Shown here: piece by piece, positions 767 through 30,175 of the stretch
Layout: every line of letters starts with the position of its first letter
How positions within the stretch are numbered: position 1 is the first letter of the stretch
Origin: Dictyostelium discoideum
Taxonomy: Eukaryota
NCBI GenBank assembly: GCA_000004695.1
Contig: CM000151.3
Location: forward strand, 448,001-512,000
DNA: 64,000 nucleotides
Direction of reading: 5' to 3'
Made by a program: the position numbers and the translations under genes
Notes under the pieces: generated by a model
What the model saw: the letters and a program-made list of their open reading frames with translations, nothing else
Databases searched by the model: none
Told to the model about the DNA's origin: nothing

Positions 767-1915
767 TTATTTGAATAAATGGTTAAAACCATTTTGAATT
801 GTATGAAATAGATTACTACTTTTTTCTAATTCTGATATTATTGATTGATAACCTAAATTTTGAAAAAAGAATTCAAATAATTGGTGATTTTTTTTTTCAA
901 TAGCTTTGGCAACATATCTTTTAAAAGATTCATCTCTTACTAAGAAATAATCTTTTGGTAATTTACTATTTTTTGGGAAAAGGATATTATCATAATTTTC
1001 TAATAAGAGTTTAAAAATATTTATATTTCCACCAATTGAGGCATTAAAAAAACAAAGTGAAAGTAGACGTTTTTTTTCTTCATTAAATGTTTTTGGTAGT
1101 GATTGTTGTGATTTTGTTTCAAAATTATTGAATGTATCTATTAATTTCCCTAATAATTTGTAATCACTATTTTTACCAATAATTTCAAAAATAATATCTA
1201 ATTGGAAATATGATTCATTAATTAAATGATTTTCAAATTCTATTAAAAATTGATCAATTTGATTTGATAAATAAAGTGCTGATATTAATGATAATCGTGA
1301 GGGTATGGGAAATTTATCTTTACATGTTGAGAAAATACATCTACCAGAATCAATATCAACTGATTTACGATTTGTAAATAACCAATATAAAAATTGTTTA
1401 TTAATGTATGAAGCTTTTAAAATGAAGAAATCATTTTGAATACTACTAAAGAATTCAATTTCAGTTTGAGCCATTATTGAAAGTGGATTATATTGTTCTG
1501 TTGTATTTTCAATAATTAATTTTATACATTCGAATTGATAGTCTAAATTAATTTTTGAAAAGCCTTTTGAATTTACTTTTAAAAGTAAAGATTCTAATAA
1601 GAGTTTTTCATCTAAATAGTTTGAGATATTAAAATTTTTACGAGTTTCTTTTAATTTTTTAATCAAGTATGCATATGATATTAAACCATACCCTTTTGGT
1701 ACTGAAAGAGTATTATTTGAAAAACGAATGTTTATAAAAGTTGGTAAGATTAAATCATTTTCAATATTATATTTATCATTTAATTTATTTTTTATTAATT
1801 GATTGAAAGTTTCAATTAAATCAGTTCCATCCAATTTCACCCAAGTTGTTATATCAGTTTTAAAATTTGGATGTAAAATGATTTCATTGAAATTTGTAAA
1901 ACAAAATTCTAACAT
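767..1915 (-). CDS. hypothetical protein, 382 aa, with one ankyrin-like motif (ASIGGNINIFKLLLEN)
   Basis: Uninterrupted 382-codon ORF from the track with a coding-like N/K/I-rich composition. No recognisable catalytic motif. Confidence 0.45.
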   Translation of the reverse strand: MLEFCFTNFNEIILHPNFKTDITTWVKLDGTDLIETFNQLIKNKLNDKYNIENDLILPTFINIRFSNNTLSVPKGYGLISYAYLIKKLKETRKNFNISNYLDEKLLLESLLLKVNSKGFSKINLDYQFECIKLIIENTTEQYNPLSIMAQTEIEFFSSIQNDFFILKASYINKQFLYWLFTNRKSVDIDSGRCIFSTCKDKFPIPSRLSLISALYLSNQIDQFLIEFENHLINESYFQLDIIFEIIGKNSDYKLLGKLIDTFNNFETKSQQSLPKTFNEEKKRLLSLCFFNASIGGNINIFKLLLENYDNILFPKNSKLPKDYFLVRDESFKRYVAKAIEKKNHQLFEFFFQNLGYQSIISELEKSSNLFHTIQNGFNHLFK

Positions 1916-2011
1916 TTCATTTGATCTAATATATCTTTTAATATCAAAATCAAAATTTTCTTTATTATTTAATTCTTTTGAAATTAGTTTTAAATAATTA
2001 TCTTTAAAGAA

Positions 2012-2055
2012 ATTTGAATTTGAATTTGAATTTGAATTTGAATTTGAATTTGAAT
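2012..2055. repeat. (GAATTT)n hexanucleotide microsatellite, about 7 units
   Basis: gaatttgaatttgaattt... read directly between the two minus-strand genes. Confidence 0.8.
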
Positions 2056-2130
2056 CAATAGATGTATTGAAAGATGAATTTGTTGAAAGTGAAATTAAAA
2101 AATCAATTAATTCTATATCATCATATTCAA

Positions 2131-3393
2131 TTAATAAAAAATAATAACACTTATTGGATTTAAAAGATTTTTTAAAATTAATTTTGAAATAAATGATTTA
2201 TATCTTGATTTTGAAACATCTGAAGATTTCATAAATCTAAATAAAATTTGAGGATATAGTTTAGTTTCAAATATTGGCAATGTACCAATACCATTTATAG
2301 TCTTTTCTAATAATCTTGAATTGCAATATTCTAGTGAAGGTATAGATGGTTGATTTCGATAATATGATTCTAAAATTTTTTCATGAATTTGATTTGATTG
2401 AGAATTAATTTCTTCATTACTATCTTCATCATCATCATCATCAAATTTTAAAAATCTTAATGGATTATAATCAATATCAAACCCTACTGAATCATAATAA
2501 AATTTAATTAATTTTTTTAAATTAAAATCATCATATTCTAAATTAATTATATTTGATTTTAAATCTTTTTCTGAATATTTATTTTTAATTTCATTAATTT
2601 CTTCAATTGTTAAAATTGGTGGTGATGATGATGATGATTTTTTATTTTTTAAAAAAGGAAGGTTGATAATAATTATACACAAACCAATTAAAATTTCCAA
2701 ATCTGTATTTAAAACATCTTTTGGGAATATTGAATCCTTAAAAAATAAAAAATCTCTTATTTTTATTAGTGATATTAACCTTGGAATCTTTGATAACATT
2801 TTTATAATTAAGGATTTTTGAATTTTATTTGTCAATTTTTTCCACTCCATTGAGCATGGAAAATTATTATTTTCATCATTTTCATTAAGATATGTCAATA
2901 TGTCAATTGAGTTATTTTTTAATGCTTCATTAAAATAAAATTGATAATTATTGTTAACCAAAATACAATTATTATAATTATTATTATTATTATTAATATT
3001 ATTAGTTTCATTAAAGGTACTATTTTCATTGATTAAAACTAGGAAACCAACTAAACAATCATTTTCTATTGAACATTCTAATAATTTATTAAAATCAACC
3101 ATTGAGTAGTGTGGAATTAAATTTTTATAAATTTTAATGTTTTCTTCATTTATATTTTTAATTTTTTTAAAAACACAATCAAAATTATTGTAATTCTTAA
3201 AATTTAAAAATTCACAACGATTCAACTTTTCAATTAGTAAGGATTGATTATTTGAATTAATAATTTGGGATACATCATTGAAATCTTCATATTTAATTGT
3301 TCTAAATCTAATGTTTGAATATGAAATTATAATTTTAAATAAATATTTATTTTTTATTACTTTCCAAAATAAAATTTCTGTATTATCAGACAT
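2131..3393 (-). CDS. hypothetical N-rich protein, about 420 aa; true start probably MSDNTEILFWK at 3393, not the poly-K extension in the track
   Basis: Track ORF 2131..3561. The upstream 55 codons are poly-K/F from A/T homopolymers. The conserved paralog at 1..427 begins at the same MSDNTEIL methionine. Confidence 0.5.
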   Translation of the reverse strand: MSDNTEILFWKVIKNKYLFKIIISYSNIRFRTIKYEDFNDVSQIINSNNQSLLIEKLNRCEFLNFKNYNNFDCVFKKIKNINEENIKIYKNLIPHYSMVDFNKLLECSIENDCLVGFLVLINENSTFNETNNINNNNNNYNNCILVNNNYQFYFNEALKNNSIDILTYLNENDENNNFPCSMEWKKLTNKIQKSLIIKMLSKIPRLISLIKIRDFLFFKDSIFPKDVLNTDLEILIGLCIIIINLPFLKNKKSSSSSPPILTIEEINEIKNKYSEKDLKSNIINLEYDDFNLKKLIKFYYDSVGFDIDYNPLRFLKFDDDDDEDSNEEINSQSNQIHEKILESYYRNQPSIPSLEYCNSRLLEKTINGIGTLPIFETKLYPQILFRFMKSSDVSKSRYKSFISKLILKNLLNPISVIIFY

Positions 3394-3801
3394 TTTTAAA
3401 ATACAGAAATTAAAAAAATATAAAAGAAAAAAAAAAAAAAGATGTTCTTTTTTTTTTTTTTTTTTTGGCAAAACAACCTCCCCTCTTTTTTTTTTTTTTT
3501 TTTTTTTGAAATTTTTTTTTTTTTTTGAAATTTTTTTTTTTTTTTTTTTTTTTTTCATCACAATTATTATTTCTTATTTCATTGTTATTATTTTTTGAAA
3601 ATGTATAATTTAATTAATTTTTTTTAATACCACATAAACACAACAAGAAACACCACATCCAAATAATTGATTTTCAAATTTTATTTTTTTTCCTTGAAAA
3701 TTTATATTAAATAAATATTTACACCAACAAAAAAAAAGAAAAAAAAAATAATGTAATATAAAAATATTAAAAAAAAAAAAAAATCCATCTTATTGATGTT
3801 T

Positions 3802-6753
3802 TTATTGAATTAAATAAAAGAGAATTGAAATAATAGTAATTAATATGAATAATGATGATGATGATGATGATGATGATAGTTTTGAGCTATCACTATTATT
3901 TTTATTATTATTATCATCATTTCCTTTATACACATCAATATCAACATCAAATTCAATTAATTTACTATTGAATATCATTTTTAAACCTATTGAATCTTGA
4001 TCAATTATTGCTTTTGAAGTACATAGATAAAAACCAGTACCGTTAGAAATATTAATTTTATTTGTACTTTCCAAGTTAGCAATACATTGTAATTTACATT
4101 TAATAGCTCTTCGAGAACCATTTGGAAGAACTATACTTGCATCCATTGAATCAGTGAAACCAATACCACTAAGTTTAATTGAAAATCCATCTTTATCATT
4201 TTTAACTTGGTTGATTTTTGTGACATTTGGATCTGAATGATTTAAAATTACATTTGAAAGTACTAAATTTGGACCAATATAAACTGATACATTAAATGGA
4301 GTATATGAAATTTGAGGTGATGAAACTAATAAAACGTCATCAGTTGAATTTGCTAATTTTCTAGTTTCTTTATTATTAACTAATACCTTAACTTTATTTT
4401 CATTTAGTTTTGTTATGAATCTATTACCAGAAATTAAAAGTATACCATTACAATCATTATTAATTACTTTTTTAACTATTGGTGGTAGGGTTGAATTAAA
4501 TCCTGAAAGCAAATTATTTTCATCGACAACCATTTCAATTGGACCATTATTAAATGAATCATTATTTCTAATTTGAAATTGATTATTATTTAATAATTGA
4601 ATTTTTGAAGTGATATTAACATCATTATAATATACTTGAATCACTTTTTCAGAATTACCAAAATTATTACCATTGATTGTAATCATATCTTTTTTAGCTG
4701 AAATTGTTAAAAAATTAATAATTGGTTGTGCATATGAAAATTGATTATTTAATACAAGTGAATTATAATTTAATATATAATCTTTATTAATACCAGTACC
4801 AGATGGCATTTGACAAGTTGTTATATATTTATTTTTTGATGATACCGGAATTGAACATTGAATTGATTTTCTGGAACTATTAATAAATATATTTGGAATA
4901 ATTTGTTCATTGAATGGATAAGTAATATAGTAAATTCCAATTTCTAATTTACCATTTTCAGTTGTTGGATTACTAATTGAATTAATTTTTAATGATGGTA
5001 ATGTAGACATTGAAATTGGTATTGAATTACTTAAAATATTATTACGGTTTATTGTGATATTAAATAATTTAAATTTTAATAATGGTAATTCAAATGTTAA
5101 ACTTTTTTCATCATTTGAAACTTCAAACTTATCAATTAAAATCTTTTCATCTATACCAATACCAGTGATTTCAATAATTGAATCATTTGATCCTCTACCA
5201 ATATTAGTACCATTTAATAATACTATACTACCATTTAATAAAATTGCATTATTTAATGATGGTACATTATATGTAAATGTATTATTATTACTAACAGAAT
5301 CACAACCATCAAATGTAATAATAATTGGTAAATTTGAACCACCTTGATTTGCAGGACCCAATATACATTGAATTTCAGTTTGATTTGAGGTAATGTTTTT
5401 ACAAAATAAATCACCAATTTTAACAGTTGGCATAGATGAATATAAAAATGAACCTTTAATTGTAACAATACCACCATCATAATATGTAATTGAATTTACT
5501 GAAGTGATAGATGGAGGATAAAAACAATAAATAAAATTCTTTTCCATTGAAACATCATTTACTTTAATATTAATTGACATTTGACCTGATTCAACTCTTC
5601 TATAATTACTAACAATAATTTGTGTATGATCTCTATTAATTATGAAATTATTTTGTTTAACACCATCAAAATAGATTTCTTGAACTTTAAAAGCATTAAG
5701 ATAGAAATTATAACCATCTATGAATACATCTGAATATTTTTGATTATAACTGACCATTGTAATTATTGGTGGTGCATATGAAAAATTTTGATAATATAAA
5801 TAGTTAAAAGTAATTAATTTTGATGAACCAGAACCTGCTGGAAAACTTACTGTGAGATTACTAACATCAAATAAGGGATCATCGAAATTACCTTTAATAA
5901 TTGCATATGAAAATAGAGAAGGTTGTGGAGGAGCTGTTACTCTAATATAGTTCATTATATTCGGTTTTGGATCACTTACATAATCTTCATATAGAAATCT
6001 TAAATAACTACCAGTGATAATAATCTCATCACCTTGTGTTGAAGGGAGTTTATTAAATTTAAATATTGGTTTTGGAGTTAATTTTGATCCAATATAGAAA
6101 TTATTACAATCTTCCCAAGGTATTGAAAAATGTCTGACACATACTCTGCTTGATGAGCTACCCCATAATCTATTAATTGGTTGTTCAGATTTGAATACAC
6201 AGTATCTAGTTTGATTAATAATTGTATCACAATCGAAATAATTATTTGAATAGTTTGATATTGGTTTATCATTATTGTACATAATAAATCTTGTAAAATA
6301 ACATTCTTCACTAGTAGTATCAAAAGTATAAACTAAAGAAGTTTCATTATAAATTATATCTTTTACTGGTCCAATTCTAAGTTTTTTATCATTTGGAGGT
6401 AAAACAGATGGTGATCCAGTCATTGAAAGATTTTTAACTAATGTATCATTAATAAGCTTAAATGTAACAGTAAATTTTTGATTTACCAATGATGGTGGTA
6501 ATTTAAAAGTCATTTTCATCTCGTTGATTGATCCTTTAAATTCACTGATTTTATAAAATTGTCCATTACTATCATTTAATTCAATAATTGTTTTGTTTTC
6601 ATTTCCAAGATCAAAACCATGTATTTCAACAATACCATTTGGTAAATAAAATCCAGTGTCCAATTGAAGTCCTGAAATTATTGTAAAATGATTAAAAAAA
6701 GATAAAGAAATTAAAAATAATAAAATAATTTTATATTTAGTTTTAGAAAACAT
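3802..6753 (-). CDS. IPT/TIG-repeat cell-surface protein with signal peptide and C-terminal membrane anchor (Tgr-like family)
   Basis: 983-aa single ORF. N-terminus MFSKTKYKIILLFLISLSFF is signal-peptide-like. Repeated IPT/TIG-type segments are present (PPSITSVNSITYYDGGIVTIKGSFL; PIINFLTISAKKDMITINGNNFG; PPIVKKVINNDCNGILLISGNRF). The C-terminus SSSSSSSSLFILITIISILFYLIQ is hydrophobic. Confidence 0.7.
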   Translation of the reverse strand: MFSKTKYKIILLFLISLSFFNHFTIISGLQLDTGFYLPNGIVEIHGFDLGNENKTIIELNDSNGQFYKISEFKGSINEMKMTFKLPPSLVNQKFTVTFKLINDTLVKNLSMTGSPSVLPPNDKKLRIGPVKDIIYNETSLVYTFDTTSEECYFTRFIMYNNDKPISNYSNNYFDCDTIINQTRYCVFKSEQPINRLWGSSSSRVCVRHFSIPWEDCNNFYIGSKLTPKPIFKFNKLPSTQGDEIIITGSYLRFLYEDYVSDPKPNIMNYIRVTAPPQPSLFSYAIIKGNFDDPLFDVSNLTVSFPAGSGSSKLITFNYLYYQNFSYAPPIITMVSYNQKYSDVFIDGYNFYLNAFKVQEIYFDGVKQNNFIINRDHTQIIVSNYRRVESGQMSINIKVNDVSMEKNFIYCFYPPSITSVNSITYYDGGIVTIKGSFLYSSMPTVKIGDLFCKNITSNQTEIQCILGPANQGGSNLPIIITFDGCDSVSNNNTFTYNVPSLNNAILLNGSIVLLNGTNIGRGSNDSIIEITGIGIDEKILIDKFEVSNDEKSLTFELPLLKFKLFNITINRNNILSNSIPISMSTLPSLKINSISNPTTENGKLEIGIYYITYPFNEQIIPNIFINSSRKSIQCSIPVSSKNKYITTCQMPSGTGINKDYILNYNSLVLNNQFSYAQPIINFLTISAKKDMITINGNNFGNSEKVIQVYYNDVNITSKIQLLNNNQFQIRNNDSFNNGPIEMVVDENNLLSGFNSTLPPIVKKVINNDCNGILLISGNRFITKLNENKVKVLVNNKETRKLANSTDDVLLVSSPQISYTPFNVSVYIGPNLVLSNVILNHSDPNVTKINQVKNDKDGFSIKLSGIGFTDSMDASIVLPNGSRRAIKCKLQCIANLESTNKINISNGTGFYLCTSKAIIDQDSIGLKMIFNSKLIEFDVDIDVYKGNDDNNNKNNSDSSKLSSSSSSSSLFILITIISILFYLIQ

Positions 6754-10761: not shown

Positions 10762-11069
10762 TTTTATTGATAATAATGAAATAAAATAAATAAAAAAAAA
10801 AAAAAAAAATTAAAAATTAAAAATTAAAACCTAAAATTTGAAAAAAAAAATAAAAATAAAAAAAAAAATGAAAATAAAATAAAAATGAAAATAAAAAAAA
10901 ATGAAAAAACGAAAAACGAAAAAGGAATAAAATTTCTTTCTTTTTTTTTTTTTTTATAAACAAATATTTAAATATTTATAAAAAAAAAAAGAATTAAAAA
11001 AAGAAATAAAAAAAAAAAAAAAAAGATAAATTTATTGAGAGTTTATTAATTTTTTTTAACTTTTTTTAA

Positions 11070-12118
11070 TCAGCATATTTTAAAGTTATATTTTTTGGAA
11101 TTTGGAAAGGAATAATTGTTTGTTTTATTTTTCTTTGAATTATAATTTCAGATACATATTTAGGAATTGAATCAATAGTTAATTGTTGTTTTATATCACA
11201 TATTTCTAAGGTTTTGACACCTTCTGGTATTATACCGCAGGTTAATTTATTGGTTGAAATCCCATTCTAAATAAAATAAAACAATCTTACAAGTTTTGGA
11301 AATTGAATGAAAGGTAAATTCTTGTTTTTATATCACATTAAAAACAAAAAATACAACACCTTCTGGTAATATACCCTGCAGGTTTTTTTTTGATTGAATC
11401 CATTTAATAAATAAACAGCCTTTACAGAGTTGGGAATTGAATCAATAGTTAAATCTTGTTTTATATCACCTAAAAATAAGTTCTGAACACCTTCTGGTAA
11501 TATACCTTCAGATAATTTTTCTTTGAATCCATCTAAAAGCATTACATGACGAGGTATACTTTTTAAACTATTTATTCCTTTACAATTATTTTCTAAATGC
11601 AATACCATTTCTATAATTGTTATAATTTTTTAGAAATGAATGATTCTCTGAATAAATGTAATATTTTCTTGAAAAAACTAAATAATATATATATATATAA
11701 GTTAGCATTTTACAAAGTTATTAAATTAATTGATCGATATGATTATACATACATTTTATAATTAAATCATTTTCCTCCAATTCTATTATAAAATTGCGTT
11801 GGGAAATAACTTTATTCAATCTAACACTAGAATTATTATTTAAAAAATCAATAATATTATTATTACTATTATTATTATTTAATGAATAAATTAGTTTTAA
11901 ATTATCTTTTATATTATTAATTATATGATTATGGAAATCAATGGTCTGATTGTTGTATTCTTTTAACATATTTATAATATCAATACTATTATTATTAATT
12001 ATTTAATAATGTCAACGATTGGTGATATTTAATAATTATTTCAAATGTATTTCCATCTATTGAATAATTTTTAAAATCATTTTTCTTTTTGATAAAATCA
12101 TTTATTTTATCAATAATT

Positions 12119-12198
<80 letters not shown>

Positions 12199-12684
12199 GT
12201 TATTATTAATTATTGGTGATAGTATTTCAATATCATTATTTAATGATGAATTTAAAGTTTCATTTATTAATTGATTATTTTCAAATGTTGGTGTTAATTG
12301 TTTTTTAATATCTAATTCGATTTTTGAGAGTATATCATGAATTTTTTTAAATTCTTTTGTTACTAAATCATTATTATTGTTATATTGTAATTGAATTTTA
12401 TTGAAGGTTTTATTTGATTCATTTAAAATAAATTGATCATTCCCTATTCTATCAATTATTTTTGGATATATATTATCTTTAAAATTATTCATTAATAAAT
12501 TAATTTCTTTTGTTGATGATCCATCGATTTGATTGAATTTATGACCATGATGTTTATTATTTATTGAAATACATTCAATACAACATGGAATAAAATTACA
12601 ATCTAAACATAAAACCATTAAATCCTTTTTTGTATGTATTATACATTTAGTATTATTAAAATTTTCACTCTCTTTTGATATCAT
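11070..12684 (-). pseudogene. B-box zinc finger / FNIP-repeat gene, copy A, frame-disrupted (probable pseudogene)
   Basis: ATG at 12684. The B-box is [35 protein letters not shown]. An in-frame TAA and a +4 nt indel near 11990 disrupt it relative to copy B. The conserved CMY|GTATGT…TTATTTAG intron is present. The FNIP repeats ([25 protein letters not shown]) at 11100-11610 are broken by several indels. The C-terminal end …ITLKYAD* at 11070 is intact. Confidence 0.55.
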
Positions 12685-12719
12685 TTTGTGTTGTAACTGC
12701 TTTGGTTGTAAATCAAAAA

Positions 12720-12751
<32 letters not shown>

Positions 12752-12954
12752 CTCTTTATTTTTTAAAAATTTTGAGATTTAACAAGATTTCAAATTTGGT
12801 TTTTTTTTTTTTATTTATTCTTTTTTTTTTTTTTTTATTTTATTTCCAACAACATTTACTATTTATAAAAAAAAAAAAATAAAAAATAAAAAAAAAAAAA
12901 AAGAAATAAAATAAAAAAAAAAAATTTTAAAGAAAGAAAGAAAAAAAAAAAGTT

Positions 12955-13380
12955 GGTAATAAGTCCCAAAATTACCATAATAATTTCAGCCAGTTATTAG
13001 GCTGTATGGCTGCTGAAAATTACCATATTAATTTTGGCATGTGACAAATAAGATAAAAAAAAAGTATTAGAAAATTATAAATTGAAACAAATACAAAATA
13101 AAATGAAATCATTTAACAAAAAGAAATAAAAAAAAAAAAAGTTAAAAAAAAAAAAACAAGTATTAGAAACAAATGATAAAAATTTAAAACAAAATCAAAT
13201 GAAAAAAAAAAAAAAAATAAGTGTTATTGTCATTTAGATGCCAAGGAAATTAAAAATCTTAATTAAAAATCGAATACCAAAATTTATTTTTAAACAAAAT
13301 TTTATTAATAATTTATTAACTGAATGGTTAATTCTAATGTTGAGTAATATTTATTATTAAAAATGAAAAAATGAAAAAGG
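12955..13380. repeat. about 425-bp inserted segment in the B-to-A intergenic spacer, absent from the equivalent C-to-B spacer; contains internal direct repeats
   Basis: The spacers align on both sides (…aaaaaaaaaaagtt / aatttcatttaatttg…). Only this spacer carries the block beginning ggtaataagtcccaaaattaccataataatttcagc. A second copy gctgaaaattaccatattaattttggc lies about 40 nt further on. Three agtattagaaa-initiated about 45-bp units follow. Confidence 0.5.
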
Positions 13381-13459
13381 AATTTCATTTAATTTGAATT
13401 ATGTGAAAAGGATTTAGAATAAATTTATTTATTGAGAGTTTATTAATTTTTTATACTTT

Positions 13460-15048
13460 TTAATTATCTAAATATTTCAAAGTTATATTTTTTGGAATTT
13501 GAAATGGAATAATTGTTTGTTTTTGTTTCATTGGAATTATAATTTCACATACTGATTTAGGAATTGAATCAATAGTTAATTGTTTTATATCACATATTTC
13601 TAAGATTTTGACACCTTCTGGTATTATACCGGCGGTTAATTTTTGGTTGAATCCATCTAATAAATTAACATACTTTACAGATTTAGGAATTGAATCAATA
13701 GTTAGCTCTTGTTTTATGTCACCTAAAAACAAATTTTCCACACCTTCTGGTAATATACCTGCAGTTAATTTATGCTTGAATCCATCTAATAAATAAACAG
13801 ACTTTACAGATTTAGGAATCGAATCAATAGTTAAATCTTGTTTTATATCATATAAAGACAAATCTTCAATACCTTCTGGCAATATACCTGCAGTTAATTT
13901 TTGCTTGAATCCATCTATTAAATGAACAGAATTCACAGATTTAGGAATTGAATCAATAGTTAAATCTAGTTTTATATCACCTAAACTTAAAAAATTAACA
14001 CCTTCTGGTAATATACCTGCAGTTAATTTTTGGTTGAATCCATCCAATAAATAAACAAACTTTACAGAGCTAGGAATTGAATGAATAGTTAAATCTTGTT
14101 TTATATCACCTAAAAACAAAAATACAACACCTTCTGGTAATATACCTGCAGTTAATTTTCGATTGAATCCATTTAATAAATAAACAAACTCTACAGAGTT
14201 AGGAATTGAATCAATAGCTAAATCTTGTTTTATATCACCTAATAACAAATTTTTAACACCATCTGGTAATATACCTGCAGTTAATTTTTGATTGAATCCA
14301 TCTAATAAATAAACAGACTTTACAGAGCTAGGAATAGAATTAATAGTTAATTCTTGTTTTATATCACCTAAAAATAATCTATGAACACCTTCTGGTAATA
14401 TACCTTCAGATAATTTTTCATTGAACCCATCTAAAAGCATTACATTTAGAGGTATACTTTTTAAACTAGTTATACCTTTACAATTATTTCTAAATGCAAT
14501 ACCATCTTTATCATTGTTATAATTTTTTAGAAATGAGTGATTCTCTGAATAAATGTAATATTTTCTTGAAAGAACTAAATAATATATAAGTAAAGTTATT
14601 TAAATAATTAATCGATATGATCATATACATACATTTAAATATTAAATTATTTTCTTCTGATTCTATTATAAAATTACATTTGAAATTTTTGAAAATAACT
14701 TTATTAACTCCAATAATAAAATTAATAAAATTAATTTCATAATTATTATTATTATCATTATTTAAAAAGTCAGTAATATTATTATTATTATAGTTATTAT
14801 TATTATTATTTTTTAATGAATAAATTAGTTTTAAATTTTCTTTTATATTATTAATTAAATGATTATCGAAATCAATGGTCTGATCGTTGTATTCTTTAAA
14901 CATATTTATAATATCGATACTATTATTATTATTTAATAATGTCAATGATTGTTGATATTTTTTAATAATTTCAAATGTTTTTCCATCTATTGAATAATTT
15001 TCAAAATCATTTTTATTTTTGATAAAATCATTTATTTTATCAATAATT

Positions 15049-15137
<89 letters not shown>

Positions 15138-15289
15138 ATTAATTTGATCATTTTTGAAATCATTATTATCAACGTATATATGATTGTTATCATCAATTGA
15201 TGGATGAAAAAATGATTGAATTTGAAAAAGAACATCTGCTATTGGTCTTTCTTCAAGTTGTGATTTACCAATTGATAAATTATTATTAA

Positions 15290-15349
<60 letters not shown>

Positions 15350-15813
15350 ATAGTATTTCAATATCATTATTTATTGATGAATTTAAAGTTTCATTTATTA
15401 ATTGATTATTTTCAAATGTTGTTGTTAATTGTTTTTTAATATCAAAATCAATGATTGAGAGTATATCGTGAATTTTTTTAAATTCTTTTGTTACTAAAAC
15501 ATTATTATTGTTATATTGTAACTGAATTTTGTTATAAGTTTTATTTGATTCATTTAAAATAACTTCATTATTGCCTATTCTATCAATTATTTTGAAAATA
15601 TATTTCTTTAAAATTATTCATAAATAAAATAATCTCTTTTGGTGGAGAATCATCGATTTGTTTGAATTTATGACCATGATGTTTATTATTTATTGAAATA
15701 CATTCAATACAACATGGAATAAAGTTACAATCTAAACATAAAAGTATTAAATCCTTTTTTGTATGTATTATACATTTAGTATTTTTAAAATTATCATTCT
15801 CTTTTGATATCAT
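13460..15813 (-). CDS. B-box zinc finger / FNIP-repeat protein, copy B; 2 exons (15813..14633, 14574..13460), but with an apparent 2-nt frameshift near 15600 (possible pseudogene or sequence error)
   Basis: The start is [48 protein letters not shown] (B-box). The frame hits TGA after …[12 protein letters not shown]. Homology to copy A then continues in the +1 frame ([17 protein letters not shown]…). The phase-1 intron TTTAAAT|GTATGT…TTATTTAG|TT (58 nt) joins to a clean 13.5-repeat FNIP domain (13460..14440). Confidence 0.55.
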
Positions 15814-15855
15814 TTTGTGTTGTAACTGCTTAAAAAAAAAAAAAAAAAAAAAAAT

Positions 15856-15894
<39 letters not shown>

Positions 15895-16179
15895 CATAAT
15901 CTTTTAAAAATTTTGAGATTTAACAAGATTTAGATTTGGTTTTTTTTTTTTTTTATTTCTTTTTATTTATTTATTTTTTTCCAATAACAATTTTTTTTTG
16001 CAAAAAACAAAAACAAATAATAAAAAGAAAGAAATTAAAAAAAAAAAAAAAAAAAAAATAAATAATAAAAAGAAAAAAAAAAAGTTTTGGAAAATTAATT
16101 GGAAAACACTAAATTTCATTTAATTTGGATTATATAAAAAGGATATAGAATAAAATTTTTTATTGATGGTTAATTAATT

Positions 16180-16500
16180 TTTTTATCTTTTAATCTAAAC
16201 ATTTTAAAGTAATATTTTTTGGAATTTGGAAAGGAATAATTGTTTGTTTTAGTTTTCTTTGTTCACATACAGATTTTGGAATTGAATCAATTTTTAATTT
16301 TTGTTTTATATCACATATTTCTAAGATTTAAACACCTTCTGGAATTATGCCTTTAGTTAATTTTTGGTTGAATCCATCTTATAAATTAAAATACTTTACA
16401 GATTTTGGAATATAATCAATAGTTAAATCTTGTTTAATGTCACCTAAAAATTCAGAATTTTGTGACGACAACAAGGTTTGAGATTTAACAAGATTTAACT
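16180..16500 (-). pseudogene. truncated third copy (C) of the FNIP gene: last about 2 FNIP repeats fused directly to 5'UTR-like sequence
   Basis: Bases 16190-16440 match the 3' terminal repeats and 3' flank of copies A and B. Bases 16480-16500 carry the ttgagatttaacaagattt element. That element otherwise lies just upstream of the ATG of A (12775) and of B (15915). Confidence 0.5.

Positions 16501-26533: not shown

Positions 26534-30175
<3,642 letters not shown>

Follow-up and report, generated by a model that had tools for sequence, protein, structure and literature searches.

Sequence errors probably account for the apparent decay of two tandem B-box/FNIP genes in the Dictyostelium discoideum AX4 reference

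Are the disrupted members of a small tandem gene array on chromosome 2 of Dictyostelium discoideum decaying genes, or do they reflect flaws in the reference sequence? The question is raised by a stretch of 64,000 nucleotides (nt) of the AX4 reference (GenBank assembly GCA_000004695.1, contig CM000151.3, positions 448,001 to 512,000; hereafter the window, with positions counted from its first letter). Three related units, here called C, B and A, follow each other head-to-tail on its minus strand, and an original prediction made from the letters of the window described them as B-box/FNIP-repeat genes at different stages of decay. We find that the locus is a head-to-tail array of paralogous, lineage-specific Dictyostelium B-box/FNIP genes, and that copy C is a true unprocessed pseudogene. 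The lesions in A and B, in contrast, are probably (a chance of about 80%) errors of the Sanger-era chromosome 2 reference, namely base calls of low quality and the collapse of a repeat unit. Judging from the sequences compared below, the cell most likely contains A (552 amino acids, aa) and B (765 aa) as intact, live genes.

Two open reading frames (ORFs) in the window are identical to AX4 proteins of chromosome 2, namely XP_645543 (an IPT/TIG protein, 3802-6753) and DDB_G0295819 (24505-25932), and the GC content is 13-31% throughout. The predicted array of three minus-strand copies is present. The 20-mer TTTGAGATTTAACAAGATTT (plus strand) has three exact occurrences in the 64 kb, one ahead of each unit (at 12771, 15912 and 16477), compared to a shuffle expectation of 0.01. 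The 3' flanks are also shared, with one type common to B and C (the inner-copy spacer type) and another in A. Identity between A and B in the 5'-most 520 nt of the gene is 92.9% when the window sequence is used and 95.2% with that of strain AX2, introduced below. Head-to-tail copies, shared flanks and a copy number that differs between strains together mark the locus as a tandem array of the kind formed by unequal crossover. Copies B and A are built as follows.

15912-15931, minus strand: copy B, shared 5' element (20-mer occurrence)
14633-15813, minus strand: copy B, exon 1, with ATG at 15813, the B-box, a helical region, poly-Asn tracts and a 45-aa insert
15593-15661, minus strand: copy B, lesion cluster in the AX4 reference, with nine substituted bases and two 1-nt gaps
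14632-14575, minus strand: copy B, intron of 58 nt, GTATGT...TTTAG (GT..AG), phase 1
13460-14574, minus strand: copy B, exon 2, with a linker and seven Pfam FNIP stretches of 43 aa (129-nt period), stop at 13462-13460
13381-13459, minus strand: copy B, 3' flank of the inner-copy spacer type
12771-12790, minus strand: copy A, shared 5' element (20-mer occurrence)
11753-12684, minus strand: copy A, exon 1, with ATG at 12684, AX4 CAA>CAC changes at 12291, 12216 and 12022, and an extra T at 11998
11752-11678, minus strand: copy A, intron of 75 nt, homologous to the B intron
11066-11677, minus strand: copy A, exon 2 (FNIP domain), stop at 11068-11066

In copy B, the two gaps lie 11 nt apart, before 15604 and before 15593, and lead to stops at about 15585, while the +1 frame is uninterrupted across the splice as far as the normal stop. 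Two further AX4 substitutions are located at 15447 and 15444. The original prediction of a 2-nt frameshift in the B-box exon was right about a net loss of 2 nt of frame in exon 1, but the loss consists of two single-base gaps and lies outside the B-box itself, about 20 codons past the last zinc ligand. The perfect 326-aa FNIP ORF of B (13460-14440) is real, and exon 2 is in fact open for 371 codons from the splice acceptor. Rescue of the frame by splicing was considered and rejected: a GT is lacking from about 15640 down to the stops at about 15585, and use of the nearest upstream GT would, by reading of the sequence, cost zinc ligands and leave the phase uncorrected.

The in-frame stop, the 4-nt indel and the garbled FNIP region predicted for copy A were all found in the window sequence. 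The premature TAA (11997-11995) lies inside the 4-nt excess relative to B and is caused by the extra T at 11998, which is sufficient by itself; without this T the difference between A and B amounts to one in-frame AAT codon. Further downstream, AX4 copy A contains many indels between 11592 and 11239, including 11 one-base insertions, in addition to several substitutions and the loss of about one 129-nt FNIP unit.

To compare the lesions with a second assembly, we used locus L001 of GCA_054883475.1, reached via the neighbouring IPT/TIG protein. This assembly comes from a set of ten Nanopore and Illumina genomes of which AX2-214 is the sole lab strain, and we infer that it almost certainly represents AX2-214. 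Compared to window positions 11100-1, a flank of 11.1 kb, L001 contains zero substitutions and ten homopolymer-length differences only, and over most of B (15444-13277) it contains zero differences; exon 2 of B is the same in both. Every lesion in A and B is absent from L001 and both frames are open. Copy B is an uninterrupted 765 aa, with a gene of 765-residue product called at exactly those coordinates, and copy A is open for 552 aa with clean FNIP units. The differences between AX4 and AX2 amount to about 45 blocks confined to two tight patches, one in B and one in A, alongside more than 13 kb without substitutions. The disabling lesions of a pseudogene should recur when its lineage is assembled independently, and those of A and B do not. 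The view of A and B as two stages of decay is not upheld by these results: the lesions are missing in an essentially isogenic strain, the AX4-only states are singletons, and their clustering and type point to errors of base calling and assembly rather than to mutation. The original prediction had itself named a sequence correction restoring the frame as a result that would speak against decay, and the AX2-214 sequence provides one.

The sole substitutions outside both patches are at window positions 13277 and 13241 in the B-A spacer, both G in AX4 and T in AX2, in unique intergenic sequence. The deposited AX2-214 model of A (L001 3974-5707) is 495 aa long, and its 246-nt intron cuts out the linker together with the first FNIP unit; read with the 75-nt intron homologous to the B intron, the same sequence encodes 552 aa.

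To place the differences of patch 1, we aligned both versions of B, both versions of A and four copies from wild strains. The AX2 base was present in all five comparison copies (A and the four wild copies) at 12 of the 13 sites, whereas the AX4 base was shared with none of the five at any of the 13; the remaining site shows three different bases. At three positions interleaved with the corrected sites (alignment columns 152, 163 and 184), the AX2 version of B does not match A, and it encodes QIDESSTKEI (GAA, Glu) like the wild copies, where A has QIDGSSTKEI (GGA, Gly).

In patch 2, located in A, 10 of the 11 extra bases double an adjacent base, in runs of one or two bases. Apart from an extra A at 11592, the changes relative to AX2 become progressively denser from 11481 to 11239, below which the sequences are identical again. 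Over the patch as a whole the spacing between differences falls from about 200 nt to a few nt towards 11239, where it ends abruptly, and about one 129-nt unit is missing at the peak. The graded error density, the sharp boundary, the over-called bases and the collapsed unit suggest the tail of a low-quality Sanger read joined to the next read.

The best surviving alternative, which we nevertheless regard as unlikely, takes the AX4 sequence at face value. Under this explanation, A and B would be young, AX4-only pseudogenes produced by clustered mutation after the split of AX3/AX4 from AX2, for example by gene conversion from diverged pseudogene paralogs elsewhere or by error-prone repair. The window sequence itself speaks for it, as do the recombination-prone nature of the locus with its variable copy number between strains, the frameshifted wild copy R_1 described below, and the family paralogs on chromosome 5 as possible conversion donors. 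Yet mutation would have to account for about 45 difference blocks in two patches beside more than 13 kb without substitutions, and conversion gives neither one-base doublings in runs of one or two bases nor a graded density with a sharp boundary. The base-substitution rate of AX4 has been measured to 2.9e-11 per site per generation, and 1,916 reference differences common to all AX4-derived lines have been attributed to reference errors, clone differences or mutations predating the founding of the lines (PMC3466296). Assuming 1e5 generations per lab lineage, fewer than 0.1 substitutions are expected in 5.5 kb; given the low measured rate and this expectation, real mutation is unlikely. AX3 was derived by nitrosoguanidine treatment, from which G:C>A:T changes are expected. 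Most of the observed changes are A>T, A>C or insertions, a spectrum that argues against real lesions and led us to reject nitrosoguanidine as the source of the clusters.

Less probable again is the proposal that the clusters are real in AX4 and that hypermutation or conversion struck the tandem paralogs in localized clusters within a few decades of lab culture, next to tgr-family genes. If so, change would have been localized while the more than 13 kb around stayed unchanged.

It is highly improbable that the AX4 reference is right for the whole lab lineage and that the AX2-214 assembly was wrongly repaired when its long-read consensus was polished with mis-mapped short reads from paralogs: the tandem region with its internal 129-nt repeats is hard to polish, and in the B patch the AX2 sequence is nearer to copy A than the AX4 sequence is, but AX2-B is not a pasted copy of A (it retains the three interleaved differences and the GAA codon of the wild copies), the FNIP segment of AX2-A reaches no more than about 90% identity with any segment of B, and chance polishing errors would not restore two long ORFs with residues that match the orthologues. 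Gene conversion of B by A in AX2 was likewise rejected, with B-specific bases interleaved with the corrected ones.

Several points weigh against the reading of the lesions as reference errors in intact genes. The claim of error rests on a comparison with the assembly of another strain, and that strain was itself identified by inference. Copies may become homogenised when paralogous repeats are polished with short reads, but AX2-B retains interleaved B-specific bases. The ratio of nonsynonymous to synonymous substitution rates (dN/dS) among the open copies is 0.55-0.77, consistent with only weak constraint and fast evolution. Finally, the wild copy R_1 looks frameshifted, and real decay does occur at this locus.

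Searches for annotated A and B products with the repaired B and its N-terminus gave only paralogs of at most 68% identity, and exact look-ups of the window ORFs and the AX2 products gave no match; these products are evidently absent from the database, which implies nothing about their annotation. ORFs specific to the lesions are not on record in public read assemblies, an uninformative result since the undisputed 326-aa ORF is likewise missing from that collection.

Copy C differs from A and B in that it is disrupted in both assemblies. Its parts are the following.

16477-16500, minus strand: copy C, shared element of the 5' untranslated region or promoter-proximal sequence (20-mer at 16477-16496)
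16476-16451, minus strand: copy C, junction filler of 26 nt with no match in the other copies
16190-16450, minus strand: copy C, last two FNIP units and C-terminal tail, original stop at 16192-16190
16112-16189, minus strand: copy C, 3' flank of the inner-copy spacer type, common to B and the wild copies R_1 and W_1

As predicted, this copy consists of two terminal repeats fused to the 5' element, joined via the filler, with everything from the 5' element to the penultimate repeat lost. It contains in-frame TAA codons at 16381-16379 and 16330-16328 and a 9-nt deletion, and its terminal repeats are about 75-82% identical to those of every other copy. Being truncated, interrupted by two in-frame stops and base-for-base identical in L001, copy C is a real relic.

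We also examined the syntenic loci in other genomes, reached via the adjacent presequence-protease gene. The interval compared lies between a putative HTTM-like gene and the presequence-protease gene, and its content was as follows.

Lab lineage (AX4 and AX2; window and L001): C (relic), B and A
Wild D. discoideum ACTFIR (L003): two copies, R_2 open (699 aa) and R_1 frameshifted under the homology-based model
Wild D. discoideum ACTFIW (L004): two copies, both open, W_1 (623 aa) and W_2 (769 aa)
Cryptic sister species ACTFIY (D. cf. discoideum, GCA_054859205.1; L002 9171-9828): no copies, the neighbours about 650 nt apart
D. firmibasis (L005): one B-box/FNIP gene, 627 aa
D. dimigraforme (L006): one truncated gene, 388 aa, with no FNIP matches

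The locus gains and loses copies across strains and species. Among the open copies, the number of FNIP motifs varies from 4 to 8 per copy and the longest Asn run from 28 to 51 residues. In their flanks, both wild D. discoideum loci show about 91-93% identity to AX4. The sequence upstream of C is collinear with that upstream of wild copy 1, and the 3' part of A with its flank is collinear with wild copy 2. Copy B has an upstream spacer of the copy-2 type together with a 3' flank of the copy-1 type, and these mixed flank types suggest an unequal crossover between misaligned two-copy arrays. The birth-and-death series proposed for the array therefore stands at the level of the locus, with copy C as a relic and copies gained and lost, but not as a graded decay of A and B.

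A history consistent with these observations would begin with a single gene beside the presequence-protease gene, as in D. firmibasis, which would be the ancestral state. This gene would have been duplicated in D. discoideum, and a third unit would have arisen in the lab-strain lineage, probably via unequal crossover, after which the first unit (C) would have been gutted by an internal deletion of about 2 kb. The rapid change in the remaining copies may be driven by unequal recombination of the 129-nt FNIP units and slippage of the AAT tracts.

Two observations on individual copies may be added. With exons modelled by homology, about 1.2 kb of copy R_1 (L003 5164-7085, GCA_054859385.1) lies out of frame, and the deposited model of 587 aa requires 158 nt of introns compared to 59 nt in the homologues; R_1 is either a real young pseudogene or carries a residual long-read error. 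The 45-aa insert of B (15278-15144) is located between two poly-Asn tracts and, at this locus, is found in B only; neither A nor any copy from the wild strains, D. firmibasis or D. dimigraforme has it. The insert resembles a segment of the chromosome 5 paralog P0005, its sole other carrier, and judging from this distribution it possibly reflects an old loss elsewhere or an exchange between chromosomes.

For the proteins, the domain content is clearest in the repeat region. The Pfam family PF05725 (FNIP) matched the frame-repaired B in seven stretches at 200.5 bits (cut-off 21, E = 3e-60), which places B in the family, and a 129-nt periodicity extends over 13582-14526. The match to PF00643 (zf-B_box) was 21.4 bits in B and 20.2 bits in A, below the cut-off of 24.1 (E = 3e-4 to 7e-4); the paralogs carry PF00643 in their precomputed annotation. 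The zinc-ligand consensus of the B-box is C-x2-H-x7/8-C-x2-C-x4-C-x2/3-C-x6-H-x2-H. A, B and all wild copies alike have eight putative zinc ligands (C14, H17, C26, C29, C34, C38, H45 and H48). A RING domain was not detected by Pfam, and the stretch before the B-box is only 9 residues long.

The structure was modelled for the chromosome 5 paralog DDB_G0289849 (P0003), which is 49% identical to B, rather than for A or B. The C-terminal half of the model is a confident solenoid, with a predicted local distance difference test score (pLDDT) of 80-94 over residues 310-510. By Foldseek, the solenoid matches 6nyr (CroV588, E = 1.5e-11) and 7zal (CroV FNIP, E = 4.6e-6), and the leucine-rich-repeat (LRR) type of FGxxFN solenoid fold was thus found in P0003. 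FNIP repeats have been described as a leucine-rich-repeat class with solved CroV structures that is very numerous in Dictyostelium (PMC9525666; D. giganteum preprint). Our working model, built on these predictions, is most likely a zinc-finger and helical self-association module that presents an LRR binding surface, TRIM-like but lacking a RING. The B-box and the helical, Asn-rich part would mediate self-association, and the FNIP-LRR surface would bind a partner; this function is proposed from the domain architecture alone. Against the model counts the N-terminal half of the paralog, which is predicted at a pLDDT below 50, with helices at 60-137 and 140-159, and the N-terminus has no sequence match in the PDB.

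The closest known relatives are the chromosome 5 paralogs DDB_G0289849 and DDB_G0290679 (UniProt 'B box-type domain-containing protein'), which are 34-49% identical to B over 78-85% of the length and have the same domain order, from a B-box at the N-terminus, where the Cys/His pattern is also the same, through a helical middle to the 43-aa FNIP units, with PF00643 and PF05725 recorded. They lie on another chromosome and, unlike them, A and B have long poly-Asn tracts. With the FNIP/FGxxFN proteins at large (PF05725; 6nyr, 7zal; PMC9525666) the locus shares a 22-residue repeat with the FN...(I/L)P signature. The units at the locus differ from those of the CroV proteins in that a DGFNxKL...LPEGV half and a GDIKQ...SIP half alternate within each 43 aa, and the repeats are fused to a zinc finger whereas the viral proteins are repeat-only.

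A similar modular logic is seen in the TRIM/RBCC proteins, in which a B-box ligand pattern precedes a long stretch of predicted helix, and a binding domain forms the C-terminus. The proteins at this locus have no RING, however, their B-box starts at residue 10, the coiled coil is a low-confidence prediction, and the C-terminal domain is an LRR and not a PRY-SPRY; they are not members of that family. The tgr family resembles the array in that copy number and content vary between strains and sister species by duplication, deletion and recombination (PMC12745789), but it is an unrelated protein family, and a recognition function is without evidence at this locus.

Large genes run beside the array in both assemblies (window 767-6753, L001 10001-22118). 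The first of them (983 aa), a few kb from the array, has IPT/TIG and Ig_TgrO1 Pfam matches; for the three that follow (874, 856 and 990 aa) no Pfam match is recorded, and a tgr-family cluster here would be a candidate only. Further away, a 1213-aa ORF (26534-30175, minus strand) with very long CAA (polyglutamine) tracts is an ordinary Dictyostelium low-complexity gene, and this ORF explains the extreme GC and AT skew at 26-31 kb. The B-A spacer contains an imperfect hairpin of about 90 nt at 12955-13050 (RNA minimum free energy -23.7 kcal/mol, z = -2.8), which is identical in the AX2 locus, is matched in the wild locus L004 only in fragments of 19-28 nt, and has no Rfam match. For the window as a whole, no Rfam match at gathering thresholds and no tRNAs were found.

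Copies A and B are members of a known, large and fast-evolving Dictyostelium family, and models for both are called in a recent public assembly. The locus serves as a caution in that two genes which seem to be in decay in the Dictyostelium reference used most are probably intact, and pseudogene and birth-and-death calls made from AX4 chromosome 2 alone can mislead in repeat-rich tandem families. For curators, the patches at 15444-15661 and 11239-12291 merit correction or checking at the level of the reads. The cluster itself is small and fast-changing, with zero to two B-box/FNIP copies plus a relic among close relatives, which is typical of the family and unsurprising.

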